A stretch of DNA of 64,000 bases. Source: a virus (taxonomy: Duplodnaviria > Caudoviricetes). How positions within the stretch are numbered: the first letter of the stretch is position 1; each line of letters opens with the position of its first letter. The stretch lies in IMG/VR virus record IMGVR_UViG_3300005670_000019; one strand, written 5' to 3'. The notes under the pieces were generated by a model. The model saw only the letters and a program-made list of their open reading frames with translations, was not told where the DNA came from and did not search any database. This document shows, piece after piece, positions 5,555-60,059 of this stretch. The position numbers and the translations under genes are program-made.

Positions 5555-6006
5555 CAAACATTTCATTTAGTTCTTTATCTCACTTTCGCACATCTTTGGA
5601 ATGTGAATATCCATCCCTGCTCGGACATAACTCAATTCTTGGAACACTTTCTTTTTATTTGAAAAAACACCTTGAAAACATGTACGTAGCTTATTCGGAC
5701 AAAGAAGAAATTCTCCAATATTTGGACAAGGTTGAAAGATGGACGCTAAACTATCCAATTTCACATAATGAAATGCAGTTTGGCGTTGTTTATGTTGGTA
5801 CAATATTCCATTACTTGCGCGGTCAATTTACTGACGAAAAACTCTGGATCCTTTTTCCGGAGGACGAGACTCGAACAAACACACACGAATTGCCAAGAGC
5901 TATACCTCTTTTTCAAATAAAGAAAGACGGAGAACTTGTACATTGGTCAAAACTGTCAATTTTTGCTCATGCCATTCGTTTTGAGAAACTGTGTGATATT
6001 ACTTGA
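5551..6006 (+). CDS. paralogue family A member 7
   Basis: EYPSLL; NYPISHNEMQFGVVY; NISFSS start shared with member 6. Confidence 0.8.
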   Translation: MTNISFSSLSHFRTSLECEYPSLLGHNSILGTLSFYLKKHLENMYVAYSDKEEILQYLDKVERWTLNYPISHNEMQFGVVYVGTIFHYLRGQFTDEKLWILFPEDETRTNTHELPRAIPLFQIKKDGELVHWSKLSIFAHAIRFEKLCDIT

Positions 6007-6031
6007 ATTTTCCTCAAAAATATGAGATAAT
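6003..6031 (+). promoter_or_regulatory. early promoter, predicted leaderless
   Basis: TTGAAT-17bp(TGA)-GATAAT, 5 nt before ATG 6037. Confidence 0.7.
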
Positions 6032-6036
6032 GAAGA

Positions 6037-6315
6037 ATGCCAAAAGGATTGAAAATGGAACAAAAAGATGATCGATCCATTCTGCTTTCATGGATAGCAA
6101 AAGAAATTGCAAAGTTCAATGGATATGACAAAGTCGTTTCTGGCGACGATGTTGTGTTTGAACTTCTTGATAATGATATAATCAATTTTGTTGAGTTTGA
6201 AACAAGGTGTAGTGTTTACTGTCACTTACAAGATACACTTCCAGACACAATCACGGTTAGTCAACTTGTTGACAAACTTATGTATTCAACTTTTCCACCG
6301 ACAGTTTTTCTATGA
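6037..6315 (+). CDS. small protein, weak acyl-carrier-protein-like pattern
   Basis: size and ITVSQLVDKL end resemble ACP; no DSL serine. Confidence 0.35.
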   Translation: MPKGLKMEQKDDRSILLSWIAKEIAKFNGYDKVVSGDDVVFELLDNDIINFVEFETRCSVYCHLQDTLPDTITVSQLVDKLMYSTFPPTVFL

Positions 6316-6707
6316 CACCTGACCAAGCACGCAAGGTAAGAAAACCTTGGTATCGGCTTTATTTCAAAGCAAACAAGGAACATTTGGTCTATGTTAGACC
6401 AAGTGATGGAAAAGTGTTTCCCGTAAGTGCGGAACGTATTCTATTTTCCGAGATTAGGAAAATCCTTGTAAGTCAGTTCGGTGTTGACGAAGCGTTTGTT
6501 GGTAATTTTCTTCCAGCTCCATGCGGTGAAAGGATGATTTTCCATCCTTTCCTTTCGTCAGATGAATACGATTTCATTCATGTACACGCGGAAGACTTGG
6601 AACTGTTTTTACACATCATTGAAAGCAAGAAGTTCAATCATCCTGGCGTTGAGTATGTTGGGATGGCGATTGACTATCATGACCGCTACGGATATGAAAC
6701 ACCATGA
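6312..6707 (+). CDS. hypothetical protein
   Basis: ATGA-coupled ORF. Confidence 0.7.
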   Translation: MTPDQARKVRKPWYRLYFKANKEHLVYVRPSDGKVFPVSAERILFSEIRKILVSQFGVDEAFVGNFLPAPCGERMIFHPFLSSDEYDFIHVHAEDLELFLHIIESKKFNHPGVEYVGMAIDYHDRYGYETP

Positions 6708-7096
6708 ATAAACATCCATATAGAGAAGCACCAAAAAAGAAAGCAAAAAGAATGTTGAGTAAATTTAGAGAAATGGATAAAGAAACCAGGGAAGTCCTGT
6801 TTCTTGTTTACGGAGCACAAACAGTGTTTACTATTTTCACTTTTATAAAGTGGATGATTGGTCTTTATTTGGTCTTTGGACCACTTATTCTATTTCTTGT
6901 GGGAGTACCTATAACATCAAAGGTATTTATACTTTCGGCAGGTTGTAGCGCAGCTTTCTTTATCGTATCTTTCCTCGCCGCCCTAGTCACATTCGACATT
7001 TGGGGACCGAAGCTCCAACGAAGAATTGCGGAGGCAAAGGTCCTTCTTCAAGAGAAGAAAGAAAAAAGCCTCGAAGAAGTTTCTTTCGAGGATTGA
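6704..7096 (+). CDS. membrane protein (2-3 TM)
   Basis: long hydrophobic core flanked by charged ends. Confidence 0.7.
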   Translation: MNKHPYREAPKKKAKRMLSKFREMDKETREVLFLVYGAQTVFTIFTFIKWMIGLYLVFGPLILFLVGVPITSKVFILSAGCSAAFFIVSFLAALVTFDIWGPKLQRRIAEAKVLLQEKKEKSLEEVSFED

Positions 7097-7098
7097 TT

Positions 7099-8963: not shown

Positions 8964-9370
8964 GTTTTCAGAATGGGGACAAAAAACATTTTTCTATCAA
9001 ATACCCGACTAGCTATGTTGAAATTTATGTAAGAGGTCCACTCTGTAGAGCCAGGTTTTTCAACACCATTTAGAGTGTGTCTAGAATCTAAGAACGAATC
9101 ATACTTCGGATTTTCAAGGTTGGTTATCAATCCCCACACCCAAAAACGATCAGAATGCTGCTTCAATAAATTGATTTGAGCGATCGCTAACCCTCCAGAA
9201 AATTCTATGGATGGGTTATGTAATTTTGAAACACTGTAAACAATTCCATATGGATATAATCCACCCCATCTTTCATGGGGGCGTGATGCCAATAATACAT
9301 CACCAGTTTCAAGCATTTGAATTGGTTTCAAATGGATGTAGGAGTTATCGTTCATACTCAATCCTAACAA
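8960..9370 (-). CDS. paralogue family B member
   Basis: IQMLETGDVLL near the N-terminus. Confidence 0.65.
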   Translation of the reverse strand: MLGLSMNDNSYIHLKPIQMLETGDVLLASRPHERWGGLYPYGIVYSVSKLHNPSIEFSGGLAIAQINLLKQHSDRFWVWGLITNLENPKYDSFLDSRHTLNGVEKPGSTEWTSYINFNIASRVFDRKMFFVPILKT

Positions 9371-9385
9371 ATTTCTTGCTAAAAT

Positions 9386-9796
9386 TCAATCACCTTTTGA
9401 AATGATTTCAATGTAATAGAGTTCTGCTTCCTTTTCTGTCAGGAAAAAGGAAATCTCAAAACGATTTGTTCTTTTATATGGAAGATACGTAAGTTGCCGG
9501 AAAGTACGCTGAAAAGTCAGGGCACCCGTTTCTGGATCTCTTCCGCTTATTTTGGATTTTTTCTCGAAGAAAGGCGGCAAGATTTCTTGCGGCGCCTCTA
9601 CTAGCTTTTCTGGCAGAAGAAAGGAAAACTCTTTTGCAAATTGGCGTGGGGAAACTGGGTTCAAATTCTTCACTTCAAGCAAGATCCCATTTGTACTTTC
9701 CTTTGAACGTTCGGAACGAATAGCAATAAGTTGCCCGCGATTGATTACCGAGCAATGAACCATGCTAAAGTTCACATTTTCATTGGTATTAGACAT
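9386..9796 (-). CDS. hypothetical protein (possibly family B)
   Basis: VINRGQLIAI. Confidence 0.65.
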   Translation of the reverse strand: MSNTNENVNFSMVHCSVINRGQLIAIRSERSKESTNGILLEVKNLNPVSPRQFAKEFSFLLPEKLVEAPQEILPPFFEKKSKISGRDPETGALTFQRTFRQLTYLPYKRTNRFEISFFLTEKEAELYYIEIISKGD

Positions 9797-10194: not shown

Positions 10195-10645
10195 AACACT
10201 GATACTTTGTGAGGTTTCTTTTCCAGTTGTTGTCACGAATGTTGTAACCAGCAAATACTACAATTGTAGCTGGTTCTCCATTGTGTTGAATGAAGCACCA
10301 ATGGGTCAATTGTTTTTCATTCTTTTCATAATGCCAAGTAGTAAAAGAATGACCGCGTTGGCTTGTGGGATCAGCTCCAACAGGAATCCCCAATATTCTT
10401 GGAACAAACTGCATAGCACTACCAGTGTTTTTGTATGTAGGAATTGTCACATCAGGAAGGTCACCGAACATCATTACCTGTTCAAAGGTAGGTCCGTGTT
10501 CTTTCTTCCATTTCTCCACATGTTGTATGTGGGCGACCAAATTCAGTTCAAACCCTGTAACAAGAAAATAAGGTTCACCTCGAATAGTGAGAAGTGTGTC
10601 ACCAACACACACACCAAGAAGATTCTTTGTTTGAACAAAGCTCAT
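10184..10645 (-). CDS. paralogue family B member
   Basis: GVCVGDTLLTIRGEPYFLV. Confidence 0.7.
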   Translation of the reverse strand: MSFVQTKNLLGVCVGDTLLTIRGEPYFLVTGFELNLVAHIQHVEKWKKEHGPTFEQVMMFGDLPDVTIPTYKNTGSAMQFVPRILGIPVGADPTSQRGHSFTTWHYEKNEKQLTHWCFIQHNGEPATIVVFAGYNIRDNNWKRNLTKYQCYVF

Positions 10646-11103
10646 AAAACCCAAATCCTTTGTCTATTCCAATCTAGTTTAGGAACTTCAATCCACAATG
10701 AAAGTAACTTACCATGAAGTCTTGTTTCAAAGTCCCAATCGTCAGGCAATCCTTGGTTCCTCAAACGTCTCCAATATTTAGAACTGTTTTCAGAACAATC
10801 AACATCGAGAAATGACCAATGAACAAATTCATATCGACCATTTTTCGTTCCGTGAAATGAAACATTTTTTTCTATCTCTTTGCAATGAGATTCATCAAAG
10901 ACCCAAAAATTCACAGAATACCATCGTGGAATTCCAGTGGGAGCATGGCTCATCCACCACACAACACTATCTCCATCCTTTTGTAAAAGGATTCCATTAT
11001 AGTGAGGAGGATCCTCGCAAGGAATGCAAACTCCAATTGGTTCTCCCGTCGGATAAACCAACGAATCGCCAAGCTTGATTTCTTCTGGATGAATTTTTCT
11101 CAA
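10642..11103 (-). CDS. paralogue family B member
   Basis: EEIKLGDSLVYPTGEPIGV. Confidence 0.7.
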   Translation of the reverse strand: MRKIHPEEIKLGDSLVYPTGEPIGVCIPCEDPPHYNGILLQKDGDSVVWWMSHAPTGIPRWYSVNFWVFDESHCKEIEKNVSFHGTKNGRYEFVHWSFLDVDCSENSSKYWRRLRNQGLPDDWDFETRLHGKLLSLWIEVPKLDWNRQRIWVL

Positions 11104-11615
11104 GGTGCCTCAATCTCAATTTGGAGGTCTTCGGGAAGATAGTGTGTAATGAAAGTGTTGGTTCGAACTGACATACCAACATCTACATTCTTGCTTGTCT
11201 CCGCGAAGGAGAAAGTTTTTGATTTGAGTGTTTGCCCTTCGGCAATCAGGTCAATATTCCAATCTCTGTACATTGGATTAGAGATCAAAATTTCAATATC
11301 ATAGATATGATACCCATCAGCAGTGTCATATCTACGCTGCCCGTCAGTATCATTCATCCACTCGCACTCCCAACTATTACCTTCAAATTTTCCATATGCA
11401 GGAATCCATCCTGCATTGATAAACTCTAAAATATTTGGGACTCTCCAGTTCCTCCTTCTAAAGGAGTTTTTATTGAACTTTAGATTCAACTTAGAAACAA
11501 TGAAACAAGGAAATCGTTCCATGGACGGAAGTGGATACCACAACATTTTGCGTCCAATAACAATGTCTCCAACGCAAAGGTCAGAAAGAAAGATTTTTTT
11601 GGTCGGCATCATCAA
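11100..11615 (-). CDS. paralogue family B member
   Basis: SDLCVGDIVI...PCFIV. Confidence 0.7.
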   Translation of the reverse strand: MMMPTKKIFLSDLCVGDIVIGRKMLWYPLPSMERFPCFIVSKLNLKFNKNSFRRRNWRVPNILEFINAGWIPAYGKFEGNSWECEWMNDTDGQRRYDTADGYHIYDIEILISNPMYRDWNIDLIAEGQTLKSKTFSFAETSKNVDVGMSVRTNTFITHYLPEDLQIEIEAP

Positions 11616-12410: not shown

Positions 12411-12779
12411 TCAACGACTAAAGCGTCGTTGTGCAATACGCTTGATATTGGAACTTACAGGAACAGGGACGAGGTATTCAAAGAACCCAGCAGGAATGAA
12501 AAACTGTGTGTTTGGGGCGTTGACCATAGAAAAGCAATAAACTTCATTATCCCAGTTTTCTCTAGCCGTCCCATGAAACATCACCATCGAACCTTGACTA
12601 AGTTCAGTAATGACCTCAAGATTAGGATTTTCCTTTACTTCCGGGGGATGATACATCGAAAAGGTCCATCCGTAGTTAGGGACTACGGGAACCTCAGAAA
12701 TTCCAGGCGGCAAGACCACACGGAAAGTCATGTGTCGCGTCCAATTACGAGCAAGTGCAATGTTCTGTTCGGTATCCAT
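12411..12779 (-). CDS. hypothetical protein, first gene of early operon
   Basis: ORF directly under promoter 12785-12813. Confidence 0.7.
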   Translation of the reverse strand: MDTEQNIALARNWTRHMTFRVVLPPGISEVPVVPNYGWTFSMYHPPEVKENPNLEVITELSQGSMVMFHGTARENWDNEVYCFSMVNAPNTQFFIPAGFFEYLVPVPVSSNIKRIAQRRFSR

Positions 12780-12784
12780 ACTTT

Positions 12785-12813
12785 ATCATAGCACGTGTTG
12801 TGCGGATTTTCAA
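12785..12813 (-). promoter_or_regulatory. early promoter, predicted leaderless
   Basis: TTGAAA-17bp(TGC)-TATGAT, 5 nt before ATG 12779. Confidence 0.85.
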
Positions 12814-17831: not shown

Positions 17832-18482
17832 TCAGCCTCCGCCAACTGGCCAAGCACCAACTGCAAGTGGAGCTTGTGGGTCTTCTTGTTGTTCAACAGA
17901 AAGACTATAGTTGGTTTGAAGAATGGTCATGAGTTGTTCAGCCATCGCCTCGTTGTAGTTATTCAGGATATAAGTTCTTGCTCTATTCAAGATTGTGGTT
18001 CTTGGATCAAGAAGTTGGTCATAATTTTCGACCAATCTTGCAACTGCACCTGCAAACTTTGCAAGGTCCAATCGCGGAGTTTTCATTGCTGCTTGAGAAG
18101 GTTGAGCTTCGCCTTCGGCTGCTGGTGTGTCACCGCCGCTGCCACCGCCAAGATCAAAATCAAGACCGCCTGCGTCTGCACCAGCATCTCCGCCGACATC
18201 ATCAGCAGGTTCGTCTGGAGTTTCTTCTTCATCTGCTGGAGGTTCGGTTTGTTCATTCAAAATTCCTGCAAGTTTTTGAAGACGAGCTTTTTCAAACTTC
18301 ATTCCTTCATAAACAGATTGAGTTGGAATTGCTTCACGTTCATATCGAACAAGATATCTATCAACCTTCATATCAAGGGAGTTGTCCGCAGGGACCTGCG
18401 TTGCAAAGTCTCCTCGGCGCTGATCTTGTTGATATTGTGGAGGTGAGACTTGTTCTTTGAAAATTAGAGATTTGATGCTCAT
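17832..18482 (-). CDS. putative head-internal/scaffold-like protein
   Basis: LIFKEQ, RLQKLAGILNEQ, acidic Gly-rich linker. Confidence 0.55.
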   Translation of the reverse strand: MSIKSLIFKEQVSPPQYQQDQRRGDFATQVPADNSLDMKVDRYLVRYEREAIPTQSVYEGMKFEKARLQKLAGILNEQTEPPADEEETPDEPADDVGGDAGADAGGLDFDLGGGSGGDTPAAEGEAQPSQAAMKTPRLDLAKFAGAVARLVENYDQLLDPRTTILNRARTYILNNYNEAMAEQLMTILQTNYSLSVEQQEDPQAPLAVGAWPVGGG

Positions 18483-19444
18483 GATCTTCTTCCTGACATT
18501 GGAGGAACAACTCCAGTTGGTACACGCTCCGGTCCAACTGTTGACGCAACAGGTGGTGTTGCTGAACCCATTCTACTTTGAACTGTATCTGGCATTGATG
18601 GAGGAGTACCAGCAACATCATCAATTGGTGGAACACTTGAGTTATGATCAAGTGTGATGACCTTTGTTGGTTCGCTTGAACCAATCGGTTGAATAAGCCA
18701 CAAGTCTTTGAGGTTTGCATTTTCTGCAACGCTCATTCTAGCTTCGATTACTTGCCAGTTCAACTCTTTCATTGTTGCATTCAAGTACATGCGCTTGTCA
18801 TTCACATAATCACGATAGTAAGCATGTTCCCAAACATCCATAACAATCACAGGAATTGCTCCAAGTGGGATGTTCACATTGTGTTCATCAATCATCACAT
18901 TTTGATATGTGTTCGTATAAGGCTCATACACACAAAGTGCCCAACCATTTCTTGCTGCCATGGCACAAGCAATGAAATCGAACTGCCAGTTATCAAATGA
19001 ACCGAAATCTCTTTGAAGTCTCATGAAAGGTAATGATGCATAAGAGATTTTTGAAGTCAAATCTCCAATATTCCCGAAGTAAAGTTCATGGAGTTTTGCT
19101 CCATTGAAGTTATAAGCTTGATCACCTTTCAATGATCTCCAAGCCGAAGAAGCTGAGTTGCTGTCAAGTTTGGAAGCAGCTACAAGGTTTGAGGTGTCCT
19201 TGTTGTAGCTGTCAACGTATTGTTTGTAAAGCGTCTCGTGGGCTTCTTTTGTGCGTTGGGACTGAGCCTCGGATTTATTGATGAAGGATTTTGGAAGAAG
19301 GATGGTCGCCTGCTCCTTGAGAACAGCAGGGTCTTGCTTCTTCGTTTCTTCCTTGAGTGACTTGACATTCACTCCGGATTTTTCAAGAGCATTGCGAGCT
19401 GCCTCTCTTGATAAACTTTCAATAAATTTCTTGCTAATATTCAT
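18479..19444 (-). CDS. sod: Fe/Mn superoxide dismutase with N- and C-terminal extensions
   Basis: EAHETLYKQY, NGAKLHELYF, DFGSFD, GWA, DVWEHAYY; all four metal ligands present. Confidence 0.85.
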   Translation of the reverse strand: MNISKKFIESLSREAARNALEKSGVNVKSLKEETKKQDPAVLKEQATILLPKSFINKSEAQSQRTKEAHETLYKQYVDSYNKDTSNLVAASKLDSNSASSAWRSLKGDQAYNFNGAKLHELYFGNIGDLTSKISYASLPFMRLQRDFGSFDNWQFDFIACAMAARNGWALCVYEPYTNTYQNVMIDEHNVNIPLGAIPVIVMDVWEHAYYRDYVNDKRMYLNATMKELNWQVIEARMSVAENANLKDLWLIQPIGSSEPTKVITLDHNSSVPPIDDVAGTPPSMPDTVQSRMGSATPPVASTVGPERVPTGVVPPMSGRRS

Positions 19445-22500: not shown

Positions 22501-23238
22501 TCCAAGTGCCCATTGAAACTTTTGTCCAAGCTTCGTCAACTCTTCTTGGATTTTGTCGAAGTTGTCCATGTTTGGACCCCACTTACTAAAGTCGGGCTCA
22601 ATCTGATTGTCATAGATGATTTTTGCTGGTTCTCCACCCATACATGCAGAACTTGCAATGATGTTTCCTTTTGCATGTTCCTTGAGTCCATCGAAATCCA
22701 TACGTGGATAGAGATAGAAACCATCAATGTATGAGTTGCTCACCAAGCGAAACAAAGATTTTAGACCAGCTTGGTTCTTTGCCAAGAGCACCAAGTGAGA
22801 ACGCTTCTTTAGTGGGTCTTTGACCTTGCGCTCTTTTGTTTCCTCTTCGTTTTCAACGACAGTTCCGCCTTCCTCTTCTTCATTCTTTTCTTCCGAGGTT
22901 TCAAGGTCGTCCTGTTCCTCTTCGGCTGCCTTACGTGCTTCTTCCTTTTCGATCTTTCTCTCTTGGTACATTTTGTGCCAATCAACAAGAGAAGGAATGA
23001 AATAAGCTTCAACGCCAGGAATTGCTTTGAAGTTTACTCCTTTTTCTTTCAACTTCTTTGCATGAAGATACTGATGCGAGAAACCATTCATGTTTCCATG
23101 ATCGGTCAACGCAAGTGCATCTGCTCCATTTTCGATTGCAAAATCAATGTGGTCTTGTGGAAGACCAATAGCATCGCCAATTGAAAGGCATGAATGGCTA
23201 TGTAGTCCAACAAACTTCTTCGGTGTACGTTCTGTCAT
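19579..23238 (-). CDS. dnaE: DNA polymerase III alpha subunit (family C)
   Basis: PHP (LHSHS, TDHG, GVEAY, DAHY), RGSAGGSL, FERFL, PDIDSDF, RHAGG, KFDILGL, IFQEQ, YSFNKAHA, C-terminal OB fold. Confidence 0.97.
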   Translation of the reverse strand: MTERTPKKFVGLHSHSCLSIGDAIGLPQDHIDFAIENGADALALTDHGNMNGFSHQYLHAKKLKEKGVNFKAIPGVEAYFIPSLVDWHKMYQERKIEKEEARKAAEEEQDDLETSEEKNEEEEGGTVVENEEETKERKVKDPLKKRSHLVLLAKNQAGLKSLFRLVSNSYIDGFYLYPRMDFDGLKEHAKGNIIASSACMGGEPAKIIYDNQIEPDFSKWGPNMDNFDKIQEELTKLGQKFQWALGEENFYWELQFNKIPAQHLLNFHLIENSKRTGIPCIVTVDAHYARPEHWRERTIYKMMAKQQMFKQELSSDNIPKSIDELECHLYPKNAEQVWASYLETGKGVYDFYDNDMICDAIERTWSIAHEQIENPEPDRTVKLPVLEKLVSADKLDELQASGKDEDTQAFNALVSLAKEGMKTRKLEEKSNFNEYVDRLKHELQVIKELKFEKYFLTYAKIMELISENQLIGAARGSAGGSLLSYIIGITQVDPIRFGLIFERFLTKKKKGFPDIDSDFSDRDAAVKTLISYFGDENVIPVSNFAQLQVASLCKDLARLYDVPFDVVNNYTAKMKAEAMEVAKQQPGFDAQVWEFTFEVAERDSKSFKSFIEEMEKSHPKFREALNVLFKQMRTISRHAGGVIISNDTKNNMPIIKAKGGLQTPWSEGLNFRHLENFGFLKFDILGLGTLRMFEDTIRRILKKNGRRYVTFKDVRSWFYQNLHPDNNAMDDMHVYKTVYWDGKYAGIFQFIKENTQKFMAEMKPKSIQDIAIATSIFRPGPLSLKVDELFLNNRKNPETVEFEHPLLKEVFAETSGLLIFQEQLQMIYHKLAGLPLEETDSIRKAFTKKDISNKEEAERQRNILRNDFIMKCKETNDISEYVSGQIFDKMEKLVAYSFNKAHAVAYAINSYICAWFMTYHPDEWCASYLDYCSTSKGKTATGEDPKVIAQNELKALGYKIERPDINLSENIVIIKDNLILPSFNTIKHFGAAVQSELNRYRPYKTVEDLLWDSGGNWRHSKFNKRALSTIIKLEGLSSMDIVGVGKQFPNYAALHYVVVDHADELKRACSRKKNRNHEELLVKLIEEAQSIPAWTSQEKIGFFQQLAGSVDIDFIIPQKLKDKFIEHSILPLNMRTSKNDLVWGIVSSTEVKKTKTGKTFMKMRIYGQDEVQQLVFVWGYDPSKNKQDIRPYDIVVGQYDESNFGLSTFYSKVRKLKTE

Positions 23239-23244
23239 GTCTTC

Positions 23245-23273
23245 ATGATAGCACGAGAAACAATATCAATCAA
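23245..23273 (-). promoter_or_regulatory. early promoter of dnaE, predicted leaderless
   Basis: TTGATT-17bp(TGC)-TATCAT, 6 nt before ATG 23238. Confidence 0.8.
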
Positions 23274-25631: not shown

Positions 25632-25643
25632 AATGTTAGGATA

Positions 25644-28878: not shown

Positions 28879-28883
28879 GCTTC

Positions 28884-34400: not shown

Positions 34401-34406
34401 ATCTTG

Positions 34407-35673: not shown

Positions 35674-35679
35674 ACCATG

Positions 35680-36744: not shown

Positions 36745-36773
36745 AAGATAACAGGTTACCACCAGACTTTCAA
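36745..36773 (-). promoter_or_regulatory. early promoter of radA-like gene
   Basis: TTGAAA-17bp(TGT)-TATCTT. Confidence 0.8.
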
Positions 36774-38652: not shown

Positions 38653-38702
38653 TATAACAAAGAAAGAAATCAAAAACATAGAAAGCGATACTTATATTTG
38701 CT

Positions 38703-45100: not shown

Positions 45101-45288
45101 ATAACATCTATGCGATTACAGATATCAATCATACTTTTGAAGCGGGAACTTTTAGAACTTCAGCGAAGTTCGTCCCACTTGAGGCATATGGAAAGTACAA
45201 TAGTTTGACAGAGAACATCAGAACCGCAATCGGTATTGTTGATCGTTATCAAACAGAAAGACAGCAAACAGAAGGAAATAGAGGTTGA
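42178..45288 (+). CDS. baseplate hub (gp27/gpD-like) protein
   Basis: ILIEYGY; GCPLLEYTQQFFIDF.TGTSIDNIYAITDINHTF..G.F.TS; synteny after LysM gene. Confidence 0.7.
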   Translation: MSSRKIIEASNKLAKYYGLYTARDLAGYIALDQTTGVNQTGTSEFNFGNVPQYLQEVIDLIVNTAEGAPATIDMLNKINEVIQSIPGASREEEERNLRRALTIFYGSADSEKFIPERIQQLANDDPNRYASIVEMITPVDVNSDNPADFINQTLSAPSKNSPTLSVVYSNSRRATPNVKNVNPLVIFLNGIPATEMSLATPFLNIQFFQPRGPTAAEPQRRLQSTSLLRFLIGAERTDQSGLLSSLAEANRVTGSLISPDRETDVYTQTGMEIFTSPQTLINANEQNFSPDNQDTTTLRAVPVLNKFAPAASLKNFSVGIKGTTGLMSYKSGELSFVIHDRSRMSEFADFIKPDLYGGSEILIEYGYAHPHANTNSGPDNPYAVLLNEMRVKEKYGIVNSSFTFDDSGQVVVTLKIAMRGGIESRSENIAAGEVSGPIRDLQNIAETISTLRQRVFRTTENLPQREIRGLQFLDLAQDQAAQLILSSELKKEARELRRSLSQSSSPDASSLLDALTRVFGSLDRSNQVDNSGLRSQVRRSVTDSINSKITKMALTPDPMLRIPFELYEKLGESRARSGARLIDERNQGLTEEQRRNAREYFNLFQKLGRTNVTSVSLAKLLLTFVGDPMARTGKFDDVQLIFYPFNDKAGFAKTINIGEFQVDLQFFATEYTRYRLENVARAGNVNVRDFLRFVAETLIDDPAAISYGLIQGRQQNLTPIWRDVVAANNRNQSPINDAPVQNQLIEEALKDVTGGEFRMPQVEFFLEAVPRRVQLTEGTDPDEGSSQTVLRIHVYDKTCSPYSTISQILEAQRNDQINSIPASPLVQGDTEVSQENAQQASRVLELADNFNLLEKLQESVIGADGQTITIDRYVVKGGPTAIKNFLYRSTPYIIYGAAGTNVIKANLSSQQNAQLSTVNMLRSLRADPLQPTGEQPGGLPLSVIPSEGTLDLNGCPLLEYTQQFFIDFQTGTSIDNIYAITDINHTFEAGTFRTSAKFVPLEAYGKYNSLTENIRTAIGIVDRYQTERQQTEGNRG

Positions 45289-47640: not shown

Positions 47641-48323
47641 ACCTTCAACCTAAGTTTCTTGATTTCTTTTCTATAGATACTTTTTCCATATTTCAAACCT
47701 TGAACTATCGGAAGCAAGCCATCACTTGCAACAAAACATGTTGACCAATGAAATCTAAAATCGGGTCCATGACCAAACATATATTTCCCAATAAAACCTG
47801 CTGGGACATATCTCTCAAATGATGGCTTTTCAAAAATCACATACCCAAACGGAAACTCGATCTCGCGCGGTCTGATGTTGTGCCAATAGAAATCAAATGA
47901 ATGATTGTTTAGCCAACTTTTGAGATCGTTAGGACGATCCCACTCTTTCCAGTTTGGATTTTTGGTTACATAACCTTTGTGGTTCAGGGATGTTGGAATT
48001 GGACTTACAATTCTTTTTTCTTGAAAAAAGGTGTCTCCATGTCCTTCACCAACGAAAACTATTGTGTCTTTTGGGAGGAACCTAAGATGAGAAGGCTTCT
48101 TTACTTTGACAACATTCTCCGGCATGTCACAACCATAAAGTTCCCAATCTTTATCCCAGAATTCATGGTATTCTTGCTTTCCGGTTTCATATACCGGAAT
48201 GATCCAAGAATCTATATGCTGCGATTTTCTTTTGTGTACTTTATGTACATTTCTAATATTCTTTTTCCTCGCAGGCGTTCTTTTGTACGGACGCATTGGC
48301 ATGGTTCGAGGAAAATGTTGCAT
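47637..48323 (-). CDS. hypothetical protein
   Basis: 228 aa, first gene under promoter. Confidence 0.7.
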   Translation of the reverse strand: MQHFPRTMPMRPYKRTPARKKNIRNVHKVHKRKSQHIDSWIIPVYETGKQEYHEFWDKDWELYGCDMPENVVKVKKPSHLRFLPKDTIVFVGEGHGDTFFQEKRIVSPIPTSLNHKGYVTKNPNWKEWDRPNDLKSWLNNHSFDFYWHNIRPREIEFPFGYVIFEKPSFERYVPAGFIGKYMFGHGPDFRFHWSTCFVASDGLLPIVQGLKYGKSIYRKEIKKLRLKV

Positions 48324-48329
48324 ACCATA

Positions 48330-48358
48330 CCATTAGCAGAAATTTGTCGATTTTTCAA
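48330..48358 (-). promoter_or_regulatory. early promoter, predicted leaderless; divergent pair with 48421
   Basis: TTGAAA-17bp(TGC)-TAATGG, 6 nt before ATG 48323. Confidence 0.6.
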
Positions 48359-49854: not shown

Positions 49855-49879
49855 ATTTCGGCTCCTTCTCCTTGCCAAG

Positions 49880-49916
49880 ATAAAGGCTCCTGTAATGGGA
49901 GCCTTTATTTATTTTC
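49880..49916 (+). terminator. intrinsic terminator
   Basis: ATAAAGGCTCC-loop-GGAGCCTTTATTT. Confidence 0.85.
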
Positions 49917-49945
49917 TTGAAAATGCCTGCGCCTCGTGTTATTCT
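49917..49945 (+). promoter_or_regulatory. early promoter
   Basis: TTGAAA-17bp(TGT)-TATTCT. Confidence 0.8.
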
Positions 49946-51827: not shown

Positions 51828-52683
51828 AAATGTTCCTCACATTATGCCCGTGCCGGAAGGTACATTTCGCGCTGTAAGAAAACATGACATTCATCTTGGT
51901 GTCGACATTTATATGCCAGAGGGAACCGAAGTAATTTTTCCCTCCACGTTCAAACTTACAGCAACCGATGCAGTCGTAAGAAAGATTGAAACGTTTACTG
52001 GTCCAAATTCAACTCCTCCGACACCATGGTGGAATGAAACAAAATCTGTTATTCTTCAATGCAATAATTCTGGCAGATTTTTTATCTTCGGAGAAATCGA
52101 AACCTCTCTAAAGGTTGGCGACATGCTCAAGCCTGGTGATGTTGTTGGAACTGTTTCGAAAGTGTTGAAGACCTACAAAGGAATTCCACAATCAATGCTT
52201 CATTTTGAAATCTGGAACCATGGGTATGAAACGTTTTTGCAAAGTTGTGATTTTGGACTTTGTTCTGTTTCACTTGAATGGAATAGAAAGGGTTTCATTC
52301 TTTCAGGTGAAAGTTTTGACGGAAATACAAAAGAGTATTACTTTGAAGATAAAGAAGACTTGTTTGAGCGTTCATTAATTGGATTTTATCAAAAATGCGT
52401 TGATGATGCCGAGATTCTTCTCCAAGATGAAAATGCAGACAACCTCGAAGTCGGAGTTCTTTATGAGGTTGAAAAGGATTTGCAGTTTCATCAGTATTCA
52501 TATGGGTTTTCCTATCACCGTTCTCCTCGAAAAGGAGAGGCGTTTGTTTACTTAGGAAGGTCTAAAAGAAAAGTTGGAATCGATCAACGAGAGGAAACGG
52601 TTTTGCATTTTGCCAATCATGAAGCGGCAGAAATCAAGATCCCGTCATTTAGACTTTCTCACTTTTTGAAAAAGGTTGGTTGA
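51802..52683 (+). CDS. M23-peptidase-like protein with C-terminal extra domain
   Basis: HLGVDI..PEGTEV, LKVGDMLKPGDVVGTV, MLHFEI. Confidence 0.75.
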   Translation: MANLFSKDENVPHIMPVPEGTFRAVRKHDIHLGVDIYMPEGTEVIFPSTFKLTATDAVVRKIETFTGPNSTPPTPWWNETKSVILQCNNSGRFFIFGEIETSLKVGDMLKPGDVVGTVSKVLKTYKGIPQSMLHFEIWNHGYETFLQSCDFGLCSVSLEWNRKGFILSGESFDGNTKEYYFEDKEDLFERSLIGFYQKCVDDAEILLQDENADNLEVGVLYEVEKDLQFHQYSYGFSYHRSPRKGEAFVYLGRSKRKVGIDQREETVLHFANHEAAEIKIPSFRLSHFLKKVG

Positions 52684-52708
52684 AAACTGCACAGTTTTCA
52701 GTTATTGT
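52680..52708 (+). promoter_or_regulatory. early promoter of def
   Basis: TTGAAA-17bp-TATTGT. Confidence 0.65.
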
Positions 52709-52721: not shown

Positions 52722-53213
52722 ATGCAAATTAGACACTATTCAATCATTCGACCATGCACAAAAGATGTAAAGAAGTTCGATCAGGCTCTTCTTGATATCA
52801 AGAAGGAAATGCAAGAACTTTGTGAACGAACAAATGGAATCGGACTTTCAGCTTCTCAAGTTGGATTAGAAGAACGTCTTTTCATCTTTCAAAGAGAGAA
52901 CGGCAATTGGATTCTTGTTTGTAATCCAAAAATGATCCCTCAAAAGAATGAAGGTCTTCAACGTCATGTTGAAGGTTGTCTTTCTGTTCCTAACGAAGCC
53001 TTCGAGGTTCGCAGGTGGGCAAAAGTAAATGCATCCTGGCAAGATGAAAACGGAAACTTTGTCGAAGAAGAGCTTTCGGGAAGAAACGCTCAAGTCTTTC
53101 AACATGAGTTTGATCATCTTGTAGCTCGTTCTATTGTTGATAGAGCAAAGAGCCAATATCGTTCAAGTCGCTTTGAAGCCTCTCGTCAAAAGAAAAAGAG
53201 AAGCAAGAAATGA
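52722..53213 (+). CDS. def: peptide deformylase
   Basis: GIGLSASQVG, EGCLSVP, QHEFDHL. Confidence 0.95.
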   Translation: MQIRHYSIIRPCTKDVKKFDQALLDIKKEMQELCERTNGIGLSASQVGLEERLFIFQRENGNWILVCNPKMIPQKNEGLQRHVEGCLSVPNEAFEVRRWAKVNASWQDENGNFVEEELSGRNAQVFQHEFDHLVARSIVDRAKSQYRSSRFEASRQKKKRSKK

Positions 53214-53622: not shown

Positions 53623-53989
53623 GCTCCTTCTATCTCTAAAGCCAGGACAGGTTGTGTACAGAACGGCAGTAAATGAAAATATTGTTCCGGGTCTTTCATT
53701 GAGCTCGATAACAGACCGAACAAATCCATTCGTTATAAATCCTGTGGCTCTACAGAGGGGGATTCACCCTTTCGAAGAACATGACCCAATGATTTACTAT
53801 GGAGAAGGTAAAGCAAAACTTTCAACCCTTTATTATGGTGGTGATGTTATAGAAGAAGATATTGTAGAAAGATATGTAGAAGATATTTTCATTTTCTTAC
53901 ATCATTTCAATAATGCAACTTACCAGTTTAGTTTTAGTAAATCCAGTCTTTACGCCGAAAATTTTCACACTCTATTTTATATTCTTTGA
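53606..53989 (+). CDS. hypothetical protein
   Basis: ATG 53606; SLKPGQVVY motif. Confidence 0.65.
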   Translation: MTEVSKLLLSLKPGQVVYRTAVNENIVPGLSLSSITDRTNPFVINPVALQRGIHPFEEHDPMIYYGEGKAKLSTLYYGGDVIEEDIVERYVEDIFIFLHHFNNATYQFSFSKSSLYAENFHTLFYIL

Positions 53990-54014
53990 TATTCCATCAA
54001 CAACGTGTTAGGAT
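53986..54014 (+). promoter_or_regulatory. early promoter, predicted leaderless
   Basis: TTGATA-17bp(TGT)-TAGGAT, 5 nt before ATG 54020. Confidence 0.75.
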
Positions 54015-54019
54015 GAAGT

Positions 54020-55273
54020 ATGGAAAAAAGACATGTCTACATTTTGGGTGGAGGAACGGTTCAACATATTCGTCCACACCTTTCTCTTGCAGCACCCGCT
54101 TATGGTTCAACTGCCAAGAAACTTGTTGAAATTGTAAGCATTACAGGACATCCATATGATGTTGGACTTACAAAGATGGCAGGACCTCGGTGGGCAAGTG
54201 AATGCATTGGGGAAACAAATGAAGAAGTTGAAAACTGGATTCAAGAAAATATTCTTGGAAACAAGGAACCTTCAATTGTTTTCTTGAACGTCGCTTTTTG
54301 CGACTTCCGTGCATCTATTGATGACGGAACTTTTCAGTCAGGAAAACATCTTCCACGTCTAAAGACTTCCGAGGGAAAGAAGTCCATCATTCTCGAACCG
54401 ACAGAAAAGGTTCTTTCAAAAATCCGAAAAGAACGAAAGGATATCTTTCTTGTTGCTTGGAAGACAACAGCAGGATCTACAAGAGAAGAAATGTTTGAGG
54501 CTGGTTTGAAGCTTCTAAAGAAAAACTCTTGCAACCTAGTTTTTGTAAATGACATTCATACTCGTTACAACATGATTGTAACTCCTGAACTTGCTGAGTA
54601 TGCTTTTTCTCAAGACCGAGAGGCTTCTCTAAAAGAGCTTGTTTACATGGCTCTAAATCGTTCATCTGCCCACTTTACAAGAACCACTTGGAATAAGGGA
54701 GAGTTGAAAGAGATTGAAGAAAGTCCAAAAACTCTTCAAGAAGTTCTAAAGAGTTGCATTGAACTTGGAGCCTATCAAGCATTCAATGATGTAACAGTGG
54801 GACATTTTGGTTATAGAGATCCAAACTCTTCAAACGTTCTTTGGTCTTCTCGTCGGAAACAAAACTACAATAAAGCAGGTGGGACGGACCTTTGCAAAGT
54901 AGAGTTTGATCTCGCAAATAACATGCAGACAGTTACCACTCCAATAGCTTCTATGAAGGCTTCTGCTGGCGCTAGGAGCCAGTTTCACGTCCTTCAAAAA
55001 TTCAAGGAGCTAGACTGCATCATTCATTTTCACTGCCCTCTAAAGCCCGATTACGATAAAAGAATAGGCATCAGACCCCAACGTCTCTTTGAGTGCGGCT
55101 CAACAGAATGTGGATTGAATACAGTCGTAGGTATGTCAAAAATCGACAATGACTTTGCGGTTGTTATGCTTGACAAGCATGGACCAAACATTTGTTTCTC
55201 TTCAAAAGCAGACCCAAAGAAAATCGTTGAGTTTATCAAAAACAACTTCGATCTTACAAAAAGAGCAAAATGA
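54020..55273 (+). CDS. CoaB/DFP-like amide ligase fused to class II aldolase-like domain
   Basis: ILGGGT..IRPH....AYG, NVAFCDF, LVAWKT, NLVFVND; then CIIHFHCP, CGS.E, MLDKHG. Confidence 0.7.
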   Translation: MEKRHVYILGGGTVQHIRPHLSLAAPAYGSTAKKLVEIVSITGHPYDVGLTKMAGPRWASECIGETNEEVENWIQENILGNKEPSIVFLNVAFCDFRASIDDGTFQSGKHLPRLKTSEGKKSIILEPTEKVLSKIRKERKDIFLVAWKTTAGSTREEMFEAGLKLLKKNSCNLVFVNDIHTRYNMIVTPELAEYAFSQDREASLKELVYMALNRSSAHFTRTTWNKGELKEIEESPKTLQEVLKSCIELGAYQAFNDVTVGHFGYRDPNSSNVLWSSRRKQNYNKAGGTDLCKVEFDLANNMQTVTTPIASMKASAGARSQFHVLQKFKELDCIIHFHCPLKPDYDKRIGIRPQRLFECGSTECGLNTVVGMSKIDNDFAVVMLDKHGPNICFSSKADPKKIVEFIKNNFDLTKRAK

Positions 55274-56139: not shown

Positions 56140-56582
56140 ATGAAATGACGGGAATGGACAAAACAGACGGGTTGATGCTGATATCAAATCCGCAACTATA
56201 TGAACCCGGGGATTTGCTTTCATTCAAAACTTCCCTTTATTTCACTTACCAATATTGGCGAGACAATACAGGGAAGAAGATAACAGATGAAGAACAGTTT
56301 CGATACTTGAAAGGCATTTGTGTCTCAACTGGTGTAAAGTATTTGAAAGAACCAATAGAAATAATGACACTTGTTCTTTCTAAGAAAGCCTCACACAGCA
56401 ACAGGGGAAGAAGAGTCATTTTGAAATGCTTGAGTGAAATTGAAGAAAAGAATGTTCTGTTCTGCGTAAAGCATATATGGAATTCACAATCTACAAGCAT
56501 TTCTATAAATCATGAGGAAAAAATAGTTTTTGATCATAATCTTAGCAAATTTTTGTTAATTGAAACAAATACAAACTCTTGA
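56130..56582 (+). CDS. hypothetical protein, family D-like
   Basis: YEPGDLLSF. Confidence 0.6.
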   Translation: MLVNEMTGMDKTDGLMLISNPQLYEPGDLLSFKTSLYFTYQYWRDNTGKKITDEEQFRYLKGICVSTGVKYLKEPIEIMTLVLSKKASHSNRGRRVILKCLSEIEEKNVLFCVKHIWNSQSTSISINHEEKIVFDHNLSKFLLIETNTNS

Positions 56583-56607
56583 CATTTTCCTCAAATCATG
56601 GCACAAT
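56579..56607 (+). promoter_or_regulatory. early promoter, predicted leaderless
   Basis: TTGACA-17bp(TGG)-CACAAT, 6 nt before ATG 56614. Confidence 0.7.
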
Positions 56608-56613
56608 AGAGGA

Positions 56614-57516
56614 ATGAAAATACTTGTTACAGGCGGTTTGGGTTTTGTTGGATCTCATCTTGTTGATGAACTTTGTAAAGACCCGCGAAATGAAGTTTAT
56701 GTCATTGACAACCTCTGTTCTGCTTCATCTACTTTAGACAACAGAAACAATAAGGCAACTTATTGGATTGATGATATCCGAAAGTTGACTGTTACAAAAA
56801 AGTATGAAGACGAACATTTTGATCTAATTTTTCATCTTGCTGCGCTTGCCAGGATTCAGCCTTCATTCAAAGACCCATTGGAATACATGTCAGTTGATGT
56901 ATTCGGAACTTCATGTGTCTTGGAATACGCAAGGACAAGACCAAAAGGAAAAGCCAAGGTTGTTTACGCAGGAAGCTCAACGGCTTTTAGCGATGTAAAC
57001 CTAAATCCATATGCTTTTGCAAAATACACAGGTGAACAAACCTGCAAGATGTATTCAGAGGTCTTCGATGTTTCAACAGTTGTTGCACGCTTCTTCAATG
57101 TCTACGGAAACAGACAACCTGCAAGTGGAGACTATGCAACCCTCATAGGCATTTTTGAAAACCTCACAAAGCAAAACAAACCCCTGACGGTAACTGGCAA
57201 TGGAGAACAACGAAGAGATTTTACTCACGTTTCTGATATTGTTTCAGGGCTCCTTGCTTTGTCAAAGGGATACCATACTGGAGAAGTTTATCAGCTTGGA
57301 ACAGGAACAAACTATTCAATCAACGAGATTGCAAGAATGTTCAAGGGAATGATTGTTAGAGTTCCAGCAAGACCAGGCGAAGCAAAAGAGACACTTGCAG
57401 ATATTAGTCTCATGAAGAAATGCTTCAGTTGGCAACCAAAAGTAAACCTTGAAGACTACGTTCAGAATTTCATTCAAAACCTTCAAACTGATGAAATCAT
57501 GCATCATCCTGTCTAA
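56614..57516 (+). CDS. NAD-dependent NDP-sugar epimerase/dehydratase (extended SDR)
   Basis: LVTGGLGFVGSHL, HLAA, YAFAK, RFFNVYG, RDFTHVSD. Confidence 0.95.
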   Translation: MKILVTGGLGFVGSHLVDELCKDPRNEVYVIDNLCSASSTLDNRNNKATYWIDDIRKLTVTKKYEDEHFDLIFHLAALARIQPSFKDPLEYMSVDVFGTSCVLEYARTRPKGKAKVVYAGSSTAFSDVNLNPYAFAKYTGEQTCKMYSEVFDVSTVVARFFNVYGNRQPASGDYATLIGIFENLTKQNKPLTVTGNGEQRRDFTHVSDIVSGLLALSKGYHTGEVYQLGTGTNYSINEIARMFKGMIVRVPARPGEAKETLADISLMKKCFSWQPKVNLEDYVQNFIQNLQTDEIMHHPV

Positions 57517-58151: not shown

Positions 58152-58174
58152 TTTTTCCGGCAATTTTATATTAC

Positions 58175-58203
58175 TTGAAAATCAACGCATTCCATGTTAT
58201 TGT
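58175..58203 (+). promoter_or_regulatory. early promoter, predicted leaderless
   Basis: TTGAAA-17bp(TGT)-TATTGT, 6 nt before ATG 58210. Confidence 0.85.
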
Positions 58204-58209
58204 AGAAGC

Positions 58210-58641
58210 ATGATCACGCACTACCTCTACAACGTCCAACTGATGACCACGTACGCATTCATGGAGGGCATGAAGGAAGGCGACCCCATGACCGTTGTGA
58301 AGACGGTGGCACGTCCGTCCCCGCAAGACGTCGAGCTTCATTCAGAGGTTTTGCTCTGCGACGACGCTGAGAAGCTTTGGAAAAAGCTTGAGAAAACGGG
58401 ATATTCCACTTTCGAGGACTTTGTGCAGAAGAACCCCGAATTCTACGGGGCACCTTGTCGCCCACAAAAGACGGCATGTTTTCATTCTGGTCTGGCGAAG
58501 TGGGAAAGCGTCGAAAAGATGAAGGAAGCCTTCTTTCGTAGCTTTCACCCCGCGGGATATGGCTCGTATGTCGATGTTTTTTGGACGGGCTTGAACGACG
58601 TGGTCTTTTGGAAGGCTTCGCGCACTTCGAGCTGCGACTGA
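58210..58641 (+). CDS. hypothetical early protein, GC-rich codons
   Basis: own promoter and terminator. Confidence 0.75.
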   Translation: MITHYLYNVQLMTTYAFMEGMKEGDPMTVVKTVARPSPQDVELHSEVLLCDDAEKLWKKLEKTGYSTFEDFVQKNPEFYGAPCRPQKTACFHSGLAKWESVEKMKEAFFRSFHPAGYGSYVDVFWTGLNDVVFWKASRTSSCD

Positions 58642-58673
58642 AAAACCCTGAAATTTCACACACAAACAACCGA

Positions 58674-58706
58674 GGGGATGGGGGCAACAGCCCCCATTTC
58701 TTTTTC
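58674..58706 (+). terminator. intrinsic terminator
   Basis: ATGGGGGC-AACA-GCCCCCAT-TTCTTTTT. Confidence 0.85.
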
Positions 58707-58716
58707 TGGATATTGG

Positions 58717-58745
58717 TTGAAAATCGCTTCGAACTGTGTTATAGT
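58717..58745 (+). promoter_or_regulatory. early promoter, predicted leaderless
   Basis: TTGAAA-17bp(TGT)-TATAGT, 6 nt before ATG 58752. Confidence 0.85.
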
Positions 58746-58751
58746 GGAAGC

Positions 58752-60059
58752 ATGATGAAGGTTCAAGAATATCTCCTGACGCACTCCTTGAGCGACCTTG
58801 CCCGCGAGCACGGCGTTTACGCACGTGTAGCAGACCACAAGTTTTCGCTCAACTACGACCAGATCGAGGCTCGCGACAGCGACGAGATTGCTCAGGAATG
58901 TCGCGGACTTGTGTTGACTCCATCCGATCACCGCACGGTTTCGCAGGATGAAATCGTTGGAAACACCCTCGTGATGGCACGTACGATGCGTCGTTTCTTC
59001 AACTATGGTCAGGAAGCTGCTGCGAAGGTAGACTTCGACCACAAGGAAACGCGTATCTACGAAAAGTTGGATGGGACGCTTTGCATCCTCTACTTCGATT
59101 TCGTGATGCAAAAGTGGTGTGTGGCAACGCGTTCGGTTCCGAACGCTGACCTTCCGATCGACGGGTTCGGAGATTGGACTTTCTCGTCTCTTTTCTGGCA
59201 TTCGTTGGCAGAAAGCTCGTGTCAGTCGGGGGTGAAGGACTCCGCAAAGCAGAATGAAATTCGTGTTGTGTTGCCCGTTTCAAACGTTCCGGGGCAACGA
59301 GAAGTGAAGTTGCAATCCGTCGCTTCGGACTTGACCTTTTGTTTCGAACTTACGACTCCTGAAAATCAGGTCGTGGTTCGTTACGACGATTACAAGGTGA
59401 CGCTTCTGTCTGTCATCGACAATGTTTATGGGGAAGAGTTTCTGCCGGACGACTATGCATCGATGCTTGGCGTGGAAACTCCTGTTTCGCATCGCTTGTC
59501 TTCCGTCACCGAACTGATGGATTTCGTGTCCAATCGCGACCCGAAGGCATTCGAAGGCGTCGTTGTTTGTGACCACAATTTCAATCGTGTGAAGATCAAG
59601 TCGGCAGGATATCTTGCCTACAATAAGATCCGCGACAACGTTTTGAAGTCGCCTCGTGCTCTTTTGGAAGTAATTCTCCTCGAAAAGCTCGACGACGTTT
59701 CCGTTGTTCTTTCGGACGGGCAGAAGAAGGTCGCGTTCGAAATGGCAGAAAAGTATCGTCAGTTCGTCCACCAACAGAACGAGCTTTTCAACGACCTCTT
59801 GGCATACATTGCCGAAGAGAATGAGAAGCTTGGATGGCGCTGGGATTTCGGGGATGCAGAGCAGCGAAAGTGTTTTGCACTCGAAGTACAGCGTCGTAAG
59901 GCAAACATCGGACCGATGATGCAGCTTTACAAGCTCAAGTGCGCGAACGTTTGGAAAACGCCGTCGTTCTCGGACTACATAAACGCTCAAAAGGACCCGC
60001 AACATGGGTGGTCGAACGCTTTCTTGGATGGGATTCTTTCTCAACTTCCGAAGGATTGA
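58752..60059 (+). CDS. T4 Rnl1-family RNA ligase
   Basis: ECRGLV, RFFNYG, EKLDGT, FELTTPEN..VV.Y, EGVVV, RVKIKS. Confidence 0.9.
   Translation: MMKVQEYLLTHSLSDLAREHGVYARVADHKFSLNYDQIEARDSDEIAQECRGLVLTPSDHRTVSQDEIVGNTLVMARTMRRFFNYGQEAAAKVDFDHKETRIYEKLDGTLCILYFDFVMQKWCVATRSVPNADLPIDGFGDWTFSSLFWHSLAESSCQSGVKDSAKQNEIRVVLPVSNVPGQREVKLQSVASDLTFCFELTTPENQVVVRYDDYKVTLLSVIDNVYGEEFLPDDYASMLGVETPVSHRLSSVTELMDFVSNRDPKAFEGVVVCDHNFNRVKIKSAGYLAYNKIRDNVLKSPRALLEVILLEKLDDVSVVLSDGQKKVAFEMAEKYRQFVHQQNELFNDLLAYIAEENEKLGWRWDFGDAEQRKCFALEVQRRKANIGPMMQLYKLKCANVWKTPSFSDYINAQKDPQHGWSNAFLDGILSQLPKD

Follow-up and report, generated by a model that had tools for sequence, protein, structure and literature searches.

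Leaderless genes have reportedly been predicted across bacteria. The early promoters of phage T4 are strong sigma70 promoters with a −35 element, a TG-extended −10 box and AT-rich upstream parts, and T4 early mRNAs have leaders with Shine–Dalgarno (SD) sequences. An mRNA that begins at its start codon is itself a known design, described for phage phiYS40, for the lambda cI gene and for several bacterial phyla. According to a review, most middle and late mRNAs of the Thermus thermophilus phage phiYS40 lack a leader, and the phage is reported to shift the levels of the host initiation factors IF2 and IF3 (PMC3594737). A survey of huge phages described genes for IF1, IF3 and peptide deformylase, read them as redirecting host translation and made no mention of leaderless mRNAs (PMC7162821); the transcript map of giant phage phiKZ contains no leaderless transcript (PMC8244752), and that of giant phage AR9 shows 5′ untranslated regions (UTRs) of 26–491 nt (PMC5312081). 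Our literature search turned up no description of leaderless early units in huge phages of the T4 type. Here we describe a class of promoters, predicted from sequence, in a 64-kb stretch of DNA from an uncultured phage (Duplodnaviria; Caudoviricetes; IMG/VR record IMGVR_UViG_3300005670_000019; GC content about 40%), referred to below as the window. Most of these promoters end 5–7 nt before an ATG, and the reading of such promoter–ATG units as leaderless is well supported by sequence and comparison.

The promoters belong to one stereotyped class, with an ATTnC upstream patch, a TTGAAA −35 element, a 17-bp spacer and an extended −10 box (TGnTAnnnT), very often followed by (G)AAG(C/T)ATG. Using the strict pattern TTGA[ACT][AT]-N17-TAnnnT, we found 21 matches in the window compared to 7.85 expected, and 21 or more were reached in 0 of 100 shuffles; a position-weight scan also returned 21 matches, compared to 2.6 in random sequence. 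An earlier reading of the same letters, made without database searches (hereafter the original prediction), had likewise counted 21 elements and had pointed to a frequent (G)AAG spacer. The spacer is indeed very common among the listed strict matches and the count is the same, but the two sets of 21 are not identical and a TG at −15/−14 is present in 15 of the strict matches, not in 18. Similarly, most −10 boxes are TAnnnT-like as proposed, but those preceding the starts at 35673 and 56614 read CACAAT and the one preceding 48323 reads TAATGG. Altogether, the window contains about 23 promoters of this class, about 14 of which adjoin an ATG opening a long open reading frame (ORF) 5–7 nt past the −10 box (Table 1).

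The spacing between promoter and ATG was itself far from random. A composite of the promoter and an ATG at 6 nt matched five times compared to 0.25 expected, and at 5 nt four times compared to 0.37 expected, counts that were reached in none of 100 shuffles. At a control distance of 10 nt there were two matches (0.27 expected), neither of them a gene start. An extended −10 box considered without a −35 element gave a weaker signal, with 13 sites at 5–6 nt compared to 3.3 expected and a shuffle maximum of 9. Across the position-weight set, the ATG of a long ORF lay either 5–7 nt or at least 11–13 nt from the −10 box, and none lay at 8–10 nt.

All 11 starts that the original prediction had placed 5–6 nt after a −10 box agreed with a base-by-base check, and the position-weight scan added three more (9355, 25631 and 37560). 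The assignment of these ATGs as start codons was supported by several observations. Many of the 14 have an in-frame stop 1–3 codons upstream, and the encoded proteins align with their orthologs from Met1, with 48323 as an uncertain exception. In the HAD_SAK_2 phosphatase, the HAD motif DxDGVL begins near residue 10, which leaves no space for a longer N-terminus, and in the epimerase the first position of the Pfam profile aligns to residue 3, so that ATG 56614 is the true start. For most of the small genes in this set, no Pfam or PHROGs family was found.

Table 1 Predicted leaderless promoter–ATG units and related features of the window (aa, amino acids; distances run from the end of the −10 box to the ATG)
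Feature	Coordinates	Strand	Promoter elements	Distance (nt)	ATG	Gene and remarks
Leaderless unit	6003–6039	+	TTGAAT-N17-GATAAT	5	6037	92-aa ORF; upstream stop 1 in-frame codon away
Leaderless unit	9353–9389	−	TTGAAT-N17-TGtTAGGAT	5	9355	131-aa ORF; absent from the original prediction
Leaderless unit	12777–12813	−	TTGAAA-N17-TGcTATGAT	5	12779	122-aa ORF; top-scoring promoter of the window
Leaderless unit	23236–23273	−	TTGATT-N17-TGcTATCAT	6	23238	dnaE (1219 aa)
Leaderless unit	25629–25666	−	TTGAGA-N17-TGaTATCCT	6	25631	316-aa ORF; absent from the original prediction
Leaderless unit	28876–28912	−	TTGAAA-N17-TGtTATGAT	5	28878	HAD_SAK_2 phosphatase (166 aa)
IF-1 homolog	31349–31648	−				Divergent, 99 aa, N- and C-terminal extensions
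infA promoter	31669–31697	−	TTGAAA-N17-GATGAT			Same class; SD-less leader of roughly 13 nt, hence not leaderless
Leaderless unit	34398–34435	−	TTGAAA-N17-TGcTAATAT	6	34400	HNH endonuclease (198 aa)
Leaderless unit	35671–35708	−	TTGAAT-N17-CACAAT	6	35673	105-aa ORF; TG-extended, non-canonical −10
Leadered promoter	36745–36773	−	Same class			RadA/DnaB-like ATPase; about 60-nt leader, GGAG SD
Leaderless unit	37558–37596	−	TTGAAA-N17-TGaTATAGT	7	37560	214-aa ORF; absent from the original prediction
Leaderless unit	48321–48358	−	TTGAAA-N17-TAATGG	6	48323	228-aa ORF; least certain site, −10 without final T
Terminator–promoter junction	49878–49945	+	TTGAAA-N17-TGtTATTCT			Compact; terminator-like 15-pair hairpin with T-run, few bases upstream of the −35
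def promoter	52680–52708	+	TTGAAA-N17-TATTGT (no TG)	13		Peptide deformylase; the 13 nt include a GAGG SD
Peptide deformylase	52722–53213	+				Catalytic motifs GIGLSASQ, EGCLS and HEFDH all present
Leaderless unit	53986–54022	+	TTGATA-N17-TGtTAGGAT	5	54020	DFP/CoaB-like plus aldolase-II-like protein (417 aa)
Leaderless unit	56579–56616	+	TTGACA-N17-CACAAT	6	56614	NAD-dependent epimerase/dehydratase (300 aa); TG-extended
Leaderless unit	58175–58212	+	TTGAAA-N17-TGtTATTGT	6	58210	143-aa ORF
Leaderless unit	58717–58754	+	TTGAAA-N17-TGtTATAGT	6	58752	T4 Rnl1-type RNA ligase (435 aa)

Relatives of the window were identified through individual proteins. A megablast of 24 kb of the window against GenBank phages gave no match, a tblastn with dnaE against the same phages gave distant matches only (all <60% identity, and 24–29% among the matches listed), and dnaE likewise retrieved no relative in a scan of IMG/VR. 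The DFP/aldolase-like protein, by comparison, has hundreds of homologs on contigs of 150–530 kb. Two of the scaffolds, L001 (300.7 kb) and L003 (152 kb), share synteny with the window, with ~54% identity for the DFP/aldolase-like protein; L005 carries an IF-1 that is 78% identical to that of the window; and L004, L007, L008 and L009 are more distant lineages with 46–51% identity.

We pooled the window with 17- to 21-kb loci from these seven relatives and counted box-to-ATG distances wherever the ATG opened an ORF of at least 60 codons. The resulting histogram, which the original prediction had proposed as a check, had a sharp peak at 5–6 nt: 7 sites were found at 5 nt, 23 at 6 nt and 4 at 7 nt, compared to about 0–1 and at most 3 elsewhere. 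The exception was 9 nt, with six matches that are partly second codons of ATGATG starts; distances of 8–12 nt were otherwise mostly empty or near-empty. The pooled sites had the anatomy of sigma70-family extended −10 promoters, with a TTGACA-like −35, a spacer of 17 ± 1 bp, TGn and TAnnnT, and the TG was present in 29 of 33.

These distances coincide with the known behavior of bacterial RNA polymerase, which prefers to start 7 bp past the −10 box, at a purine preceded by a pyrimidine, and which starts further upstream when the discriminator is purine-rich (PMC5730371). At a distance of 6 nt, the A of the ATG occupies position 7 after the −10 box and thus the modal sigma70 start, and the discriminators of the 5-nt sites are all purine-rich (GAAGA, AAAGT, GAAGC, GAAGT and TGAGT). 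A pyrimidine at −1 together with a purine at +1 was found in 27 of 33 pooled sites. Leaderless mRNAs are reported to depend on AUG, with neither GUG nor UUG able to replace it (PMC4611024), and the start codons at these offsets were 33 ATG compared to two GTG and three TTG. Folding close to the start codon inhibits initiation on leaderless mRNAs (PMC9031893), and over their first 40 nt the predicted transcripts were less structured than 40-mer controls of equal GC content (−3.3 compared to −5.7 kcal/mol, P = 1.1e−5). ATG use, the pyrimidine at −1 and weak 5′ structure are independent predictions of the leaderless model, and all three were observed.

Comparison with L001, L003 and L005 indicated that the geometry is maintained over considerable protein divergence. 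Eight gene families (54020, 58210, 58752, dnaE, 48323, 25631, HNH and HAD) keep TTGAnn-N17(18)-TAnnnT 5–6 nt before the ATG at about 25–80% protein identity, with the spacing of −35, −10 and ATG preserved and the spacer and discriminator bases different. The dnaE ortholog in L003 has the same promoter–ATG geometry and an identical N-terminus (MTERTPKKF), and in weak orthologs of the 316-aa ORF in L001 and L003 (25–31% identity) a promoter again precedes the ATG by 6 nt. For the DFP/aldolase-like protein the geometry is kept in L001 (6 nt) and L003 (5 nt) with different intervening bases. The box also lies 6 nt before the ATG in the RNA ligase orthologs of L001 and L003, in those of the 143-aa ORF in the same two scaffolds (N-termini MITHYLY and MLTHYLY), and in the HNH and HAD_SAK_2 orthologs of L005. 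The epimerase gene is operon-internal in L001 and L003. Discriminators of orthologs include GAAGT, TGTAAC and GAAGC in one gene and AGAAGC and TTACTT in another; conservation of the spacing and not of the discriminator sequence is a signature of selection on geometry. Among the more distant lineages, L007, L008 and L009 have 10 sites at 5–7 nt, often with a 16-nt spacer, and L004 has none.

The stored gene calls of L005 for the HNH and HAD proteins (5686–6216 and 10638–11216) skip the ATG that lies 6 nt past the conserved promoter, and the called proteins have longer N-termini than this layout would give. Together, the promoter–ATG layout and the alignment with the window proteins point to starts at 5593 and 10704, respectively, and gene callers that seek an SD sequence appear to pick wrong starts for leaderless genes, which matters for annotation.

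The variable discriminators also bear on a different interpretation of the same boxes, according to which they are promoters or other conserved signals and the ATGs are translated mainly from read-through mRNAs, by way of purine-rich weak ribosome-binding sites (AGGAT, GAAG) or by coupling. At 54020 and 9355 the −10 box does contain an AGGA, placed 6 nt ahead of the ATG, genes are densely packed and several promoters lie near the stop of the upstream gene. However, the discriminators of orthologs vary (TGTAAC, TTACTT, AGACAC, GTGGGC) and the spacing does not, and GAAG stands 1–2 nt from the ATG, nearer than the optimal SD distance of 4–9 nt (PMC4611024). Moreover, translation by weak SD sequences or coupling predicts neither the exclusive use of ATG, nor the pyrimidine at −1, nor an exact mode at 6 nt, and we consider this interpretation very improbable.

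Several points nevertheless weigh against leaderless initiation at these ATGs. Read-through from upstream units could present them within longer mRNAs, and the start-site preference was assumed from E. coli and may not be that of the host polymerase. A loose generic sigma70 scan of the window showed no enrichment (33 matches compared to 32.9 expected), so that the signal is carried by the specific motif class only. In addition, 3 of the 14 sites have a non-canonical −10 box (CACAAT twice and TAATGG once), and orthologs of the 48323 gene begin nine codons further in.

Other genes of the window appear to be initiated in other ways. Where a promoter of the class does not adjoin an ATG, the gene starts at least 11–13 nt downstream, as for infA, def, the RadA-like ATPase and the genes starting at 48469, 49970 and 2586. 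Recognizable SD sequences include AAGGAG before 17525, 47383 and 48469, AGGAG before 3196 and 24641, and GAGG before def; the remaining genes have overlapping stop–start junctions or, in many cases, no recognizable SD. The clear SDs before several genes imply that the host ribosome reads them and that the phage mixes several modes of initiation. The start region (A-CATCGA) and ~60-nt leader of the RadA/DnaB-like ATPase promoter are conserved in the window and in L005 (about 1800–1898), and this leader may be regulated. Downstream of the terminator–promoter junction, the likely start is ATG 49970, which follows an AAGGA SD and is leadered. A further good promoter (32888–32923, minus strand; TTGAAT-N17-TGcTACACT) lies within the 322-aa ORF at 32258–33226, with an in-frame GTG 7 nt past the −10 box followed by GAGGG, and could be internal, serving a shorter product or downstream genes. 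On the plus strand at 38688–38705, the sequence ATACTTAT lies 7 nt before the ATG of a 1037-aa protein (38703–41816) that has no SD. This sequence fits a candidate late-promoter motif, ATA[TCA]TTA[GT], and is the sole such case in the window; a late promoter class may thus also give leaderless mRNAs.

This mixture of signals is relevant to whether the layout is a phage programme at all. The promoters might instead copy a usual practice of the host, that of placing the −10 region next to the ORF as in Deinococcus–Thermus or Actinobacteria; the mRNAs would then still be leaderless, but ribosomes would not be specially redirected. The same geometry was found across phage lineages with GC contents of 37–50%, whichever initiation factor they carry; genes of the ‘−10 region adjacent to ORF’ type are common in whole phyla and account for about one third of Deinococcus radiodurans ORFs (PMC12340547); and many internal genes of the window have a weak SD or none, as in SD-poor hosts. 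On the other hand, the clear SDs (AAGGAG, AGGAG and GAGG) before several genes indicate that host ribosomes use such signals, and GC contents of 37–50% are unlike those of the high-GC phyla best known for leaderless mRNAs. We regard host mimicry as a serious, if somewhat unlikely, explanation.

As far as sequence and comparison reach, the leaderless reading put forward in the original prediction was borne out by the histogram peak, by conservation and by the signatures of start codon, −1 base and 5′ structure. From the geometry, its statistics, its conservation and these signatures we infer start sites, timing and mode of translation as follows. The class would most likely be read early in infection by unmodified host RNA polymerase, as a host-type sigma70-family class analogous to T4 early promoters; that these units are early is suggested by the host-type promoter and the gene functions. 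With the ATG 5–7 nt past the −10 box, its A would sit at the preferred start of the sigma70 holoenzyme, and the transcript should consequently begin with AUG or 1–2 nt before it, with no SD. The ribosome would recognize the 5′-terminal AUG and translate the first cistron by the leaderless pathway, and downstream cistrons would depend on SD sequences or on coupling at overlapping stops and starts. We consider the layout to have been inherited and selected across a broad group of huge T4-type phages, not to be peculiar to one genome, and to be independent of a phage-encoded IF-1 or deformylase.

The original prediction had gone further, proposing that an early-expressed phage IF-1, perhaps with the deformylase, biases ribosomes toward leaderless phage mRNAs or protects that pathway. 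Both genes are confirmed by Pfam (infA, PF01176, 1.7e−9; def, PF01327, 2.6e−33). The IF-1 homolog scored 37.6 bits against PF01176 (cut-off 30.2) and 48.9 bits against TIGR00008, under the cut-off of 61.15; IF-1 chains in the PDB match at E = 7e−9, and identity to bacterial IF-1 is at most 40–55% over part of the length. In the alignment, the arginine of the C-terminal F/Y-R motif is invariant, the GR position is Ile in the window protein and in P0122 and Val in P0123, HY or HF stands in place of RK, and one further Arg has become Asn. We take the F/Y-R arginine to be Arg69 and the GR position to be Arg64, the residue numbering being presumed. Arg64 and Arg69 are named as basic residues contacting 16S rRNA, and the C-terminal arginine, which the phage protein keeps, is described as essential for 30S binding (PMC4611024). 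The phage protein has thus kept the C-terminal Arg, lost the Arg64-like and adjacent basic residues and gained terminal extensions, and so departs from an IF-1 of about 72 residues with conserved rRNA-contacting basic residues.

Some observations fit such a role for IF-1. According to a review, IF1 and IF2 have a stimulating effect on leaderless translation in vitro, and 70S scanning responds strongly to IF1 (PMC9031893); phiYS40 is reported to raise IF2 and lower IF3 while making leaderless mRNAs (PMC3594737). The infA gene is served by a promoter of its own, which is again of this class and is conserved in L005, and the extensions and altered basic residues of the divergent protein make a changed function conceivable. 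However, infA and def are themselves leadered: infA follows an SD-less leader of about 13–25 nt in the window and L005, the latter having the same layout with the longer leader, and def in L001 and L003 is operon-internal, without its own promoter and after AAGGAG or GGAG. Deformylase, moreover, acts on every fMet-initiated chain and is therefore not specific to leaderless mRNAs, and the factors are common cargo: genes for IF-1, IF3 and deformylase are found widely among huge phages (PMC7162821), and in Bacteroides jumbo phages IF-1 belongs to the core genes (PMC12880540).

The distribution of IF3 is also informative, as IF3 is reported to be an inhibitor of leaderless translation (PMC9031893). 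Full IF3 genes (IF3_N plus IF3_C) are present in L004 (5078–5593), L007 (8409–8930), L008 (6077–6601) and L009 (7131–7703), separated by a few genes from the M23 peptidase and DFP-like genes downstream; at that syntenic place the clade of the window has def and no IF3, and tblastn found no IF3 within the 64 kb. We considered whether lineages with a phage IF3 lack the leaderless layout and rejected this, because L004 is the only one of the four without sites. The presence of the 5–7-nt peak in the other three argues against a straightforward coupling specific to IF-1. We see nothing in the sequences that connects IF-1 or deformylase to the layout; the proposed link is unsupported, and also not refuted, by these comparisons, and we judge it improbable. 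A more specific version, likewise doubtful, is that the divergent IF-1 may be a modified A-site factor that favors initiation by intact 70S ribosomes, either on leaderless mRNAs or by 70S scanning between packed SD-poor cistrons, so that early phage mRNAs would be prioritized over SD-led host mRNAs; sister lineages would use their own IF3 to a similar end.

The window also encodes a Dam methylase and an SOD-like protein, and no tRNA genes were found in it. The SOD-like protein (18479–19444, minus strand, 321 aa) has only the C-terminal Fe/Mn SOD domain of Pfam (2.4e−22, residues 143–236) and scores far under the NCBIfam SOD cut-offs; for the N-terminal region and the C-terminal tail on either side of this domain there is no matching family. 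This gene, def and infA are too diverged for host assignment. The 1037-aa protein at 38703–41816 and a 1036-aa protein at 42178–45288 (both plus strand) have no Pfam or PHROG family and are mutually dissimilar and not paralogs; the second probably has its counterpart in a 1037/1038-aa protein located at the left ends of L001 and L003.

Should start-site mapping confirm the predicted starts, a widespread group of environmental phages of 150–500 kb would do without a ribosome-binding site in translating the opening gene of most early units, genes for the replicative polymerase and RNA-repair enzymes included, and their host would have to translate 5′-terminal AUGs efficiently. The group would also offer a natural system for asking whether a phage IF-1, or the IF3 of sister lineages, tunes SD-led compared to leaderless initiation.

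Compared with the known systems, the promoter anatomy is like that of T4 early promoters, but T4 early mRNAs are leadered and have SD sequences, whereas here the ATG lies at the predicted +1. To our knowledge, phiYS40 promoters have no −35 element. As a review describes it, phiYS40 is similar in that it is large and lytic, most transcripts of one temporal class are leaderless and a link to initiation-factor balance has been proposed. It differs in that its leaderless transcripts are middle and late, whereas the promoters here look early and combine a complete −35 element with a 17-bp spacer and an extended −10 box, and in that it is reported to change host IF2 and IF3 levels, whereas here an IF-1 homolog is encoded, with IF3 in sister lineages. 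Its host is Thermus, and the host here is not evidently a thermophile. In the ‘−10 region adjacent to ORF’ genes of Deinococcus–Thermus, a TAnnnT a few nucleotides before the start is likewise the −10 box and there is no 5′ UTR (PMC12340547), but these are chromosomal genes of particular phyla, whereas the present units belong to a clade of huge T4-type phages with moderate GC content, a strong −35 and TG. Finally, lambda cI transcribed from pRM is likewise a phage mRNA from a sigma70 promoter that starts at the A of its AUG, which is recognized at the 5′ terminus (PMC9031893); that case concerns a single regulatory gene, whereas here the predicted leaderless units make up the majority of one promoter class and include dnaE, an RNA ligase, an HNH endonuclease and a phosphatase.

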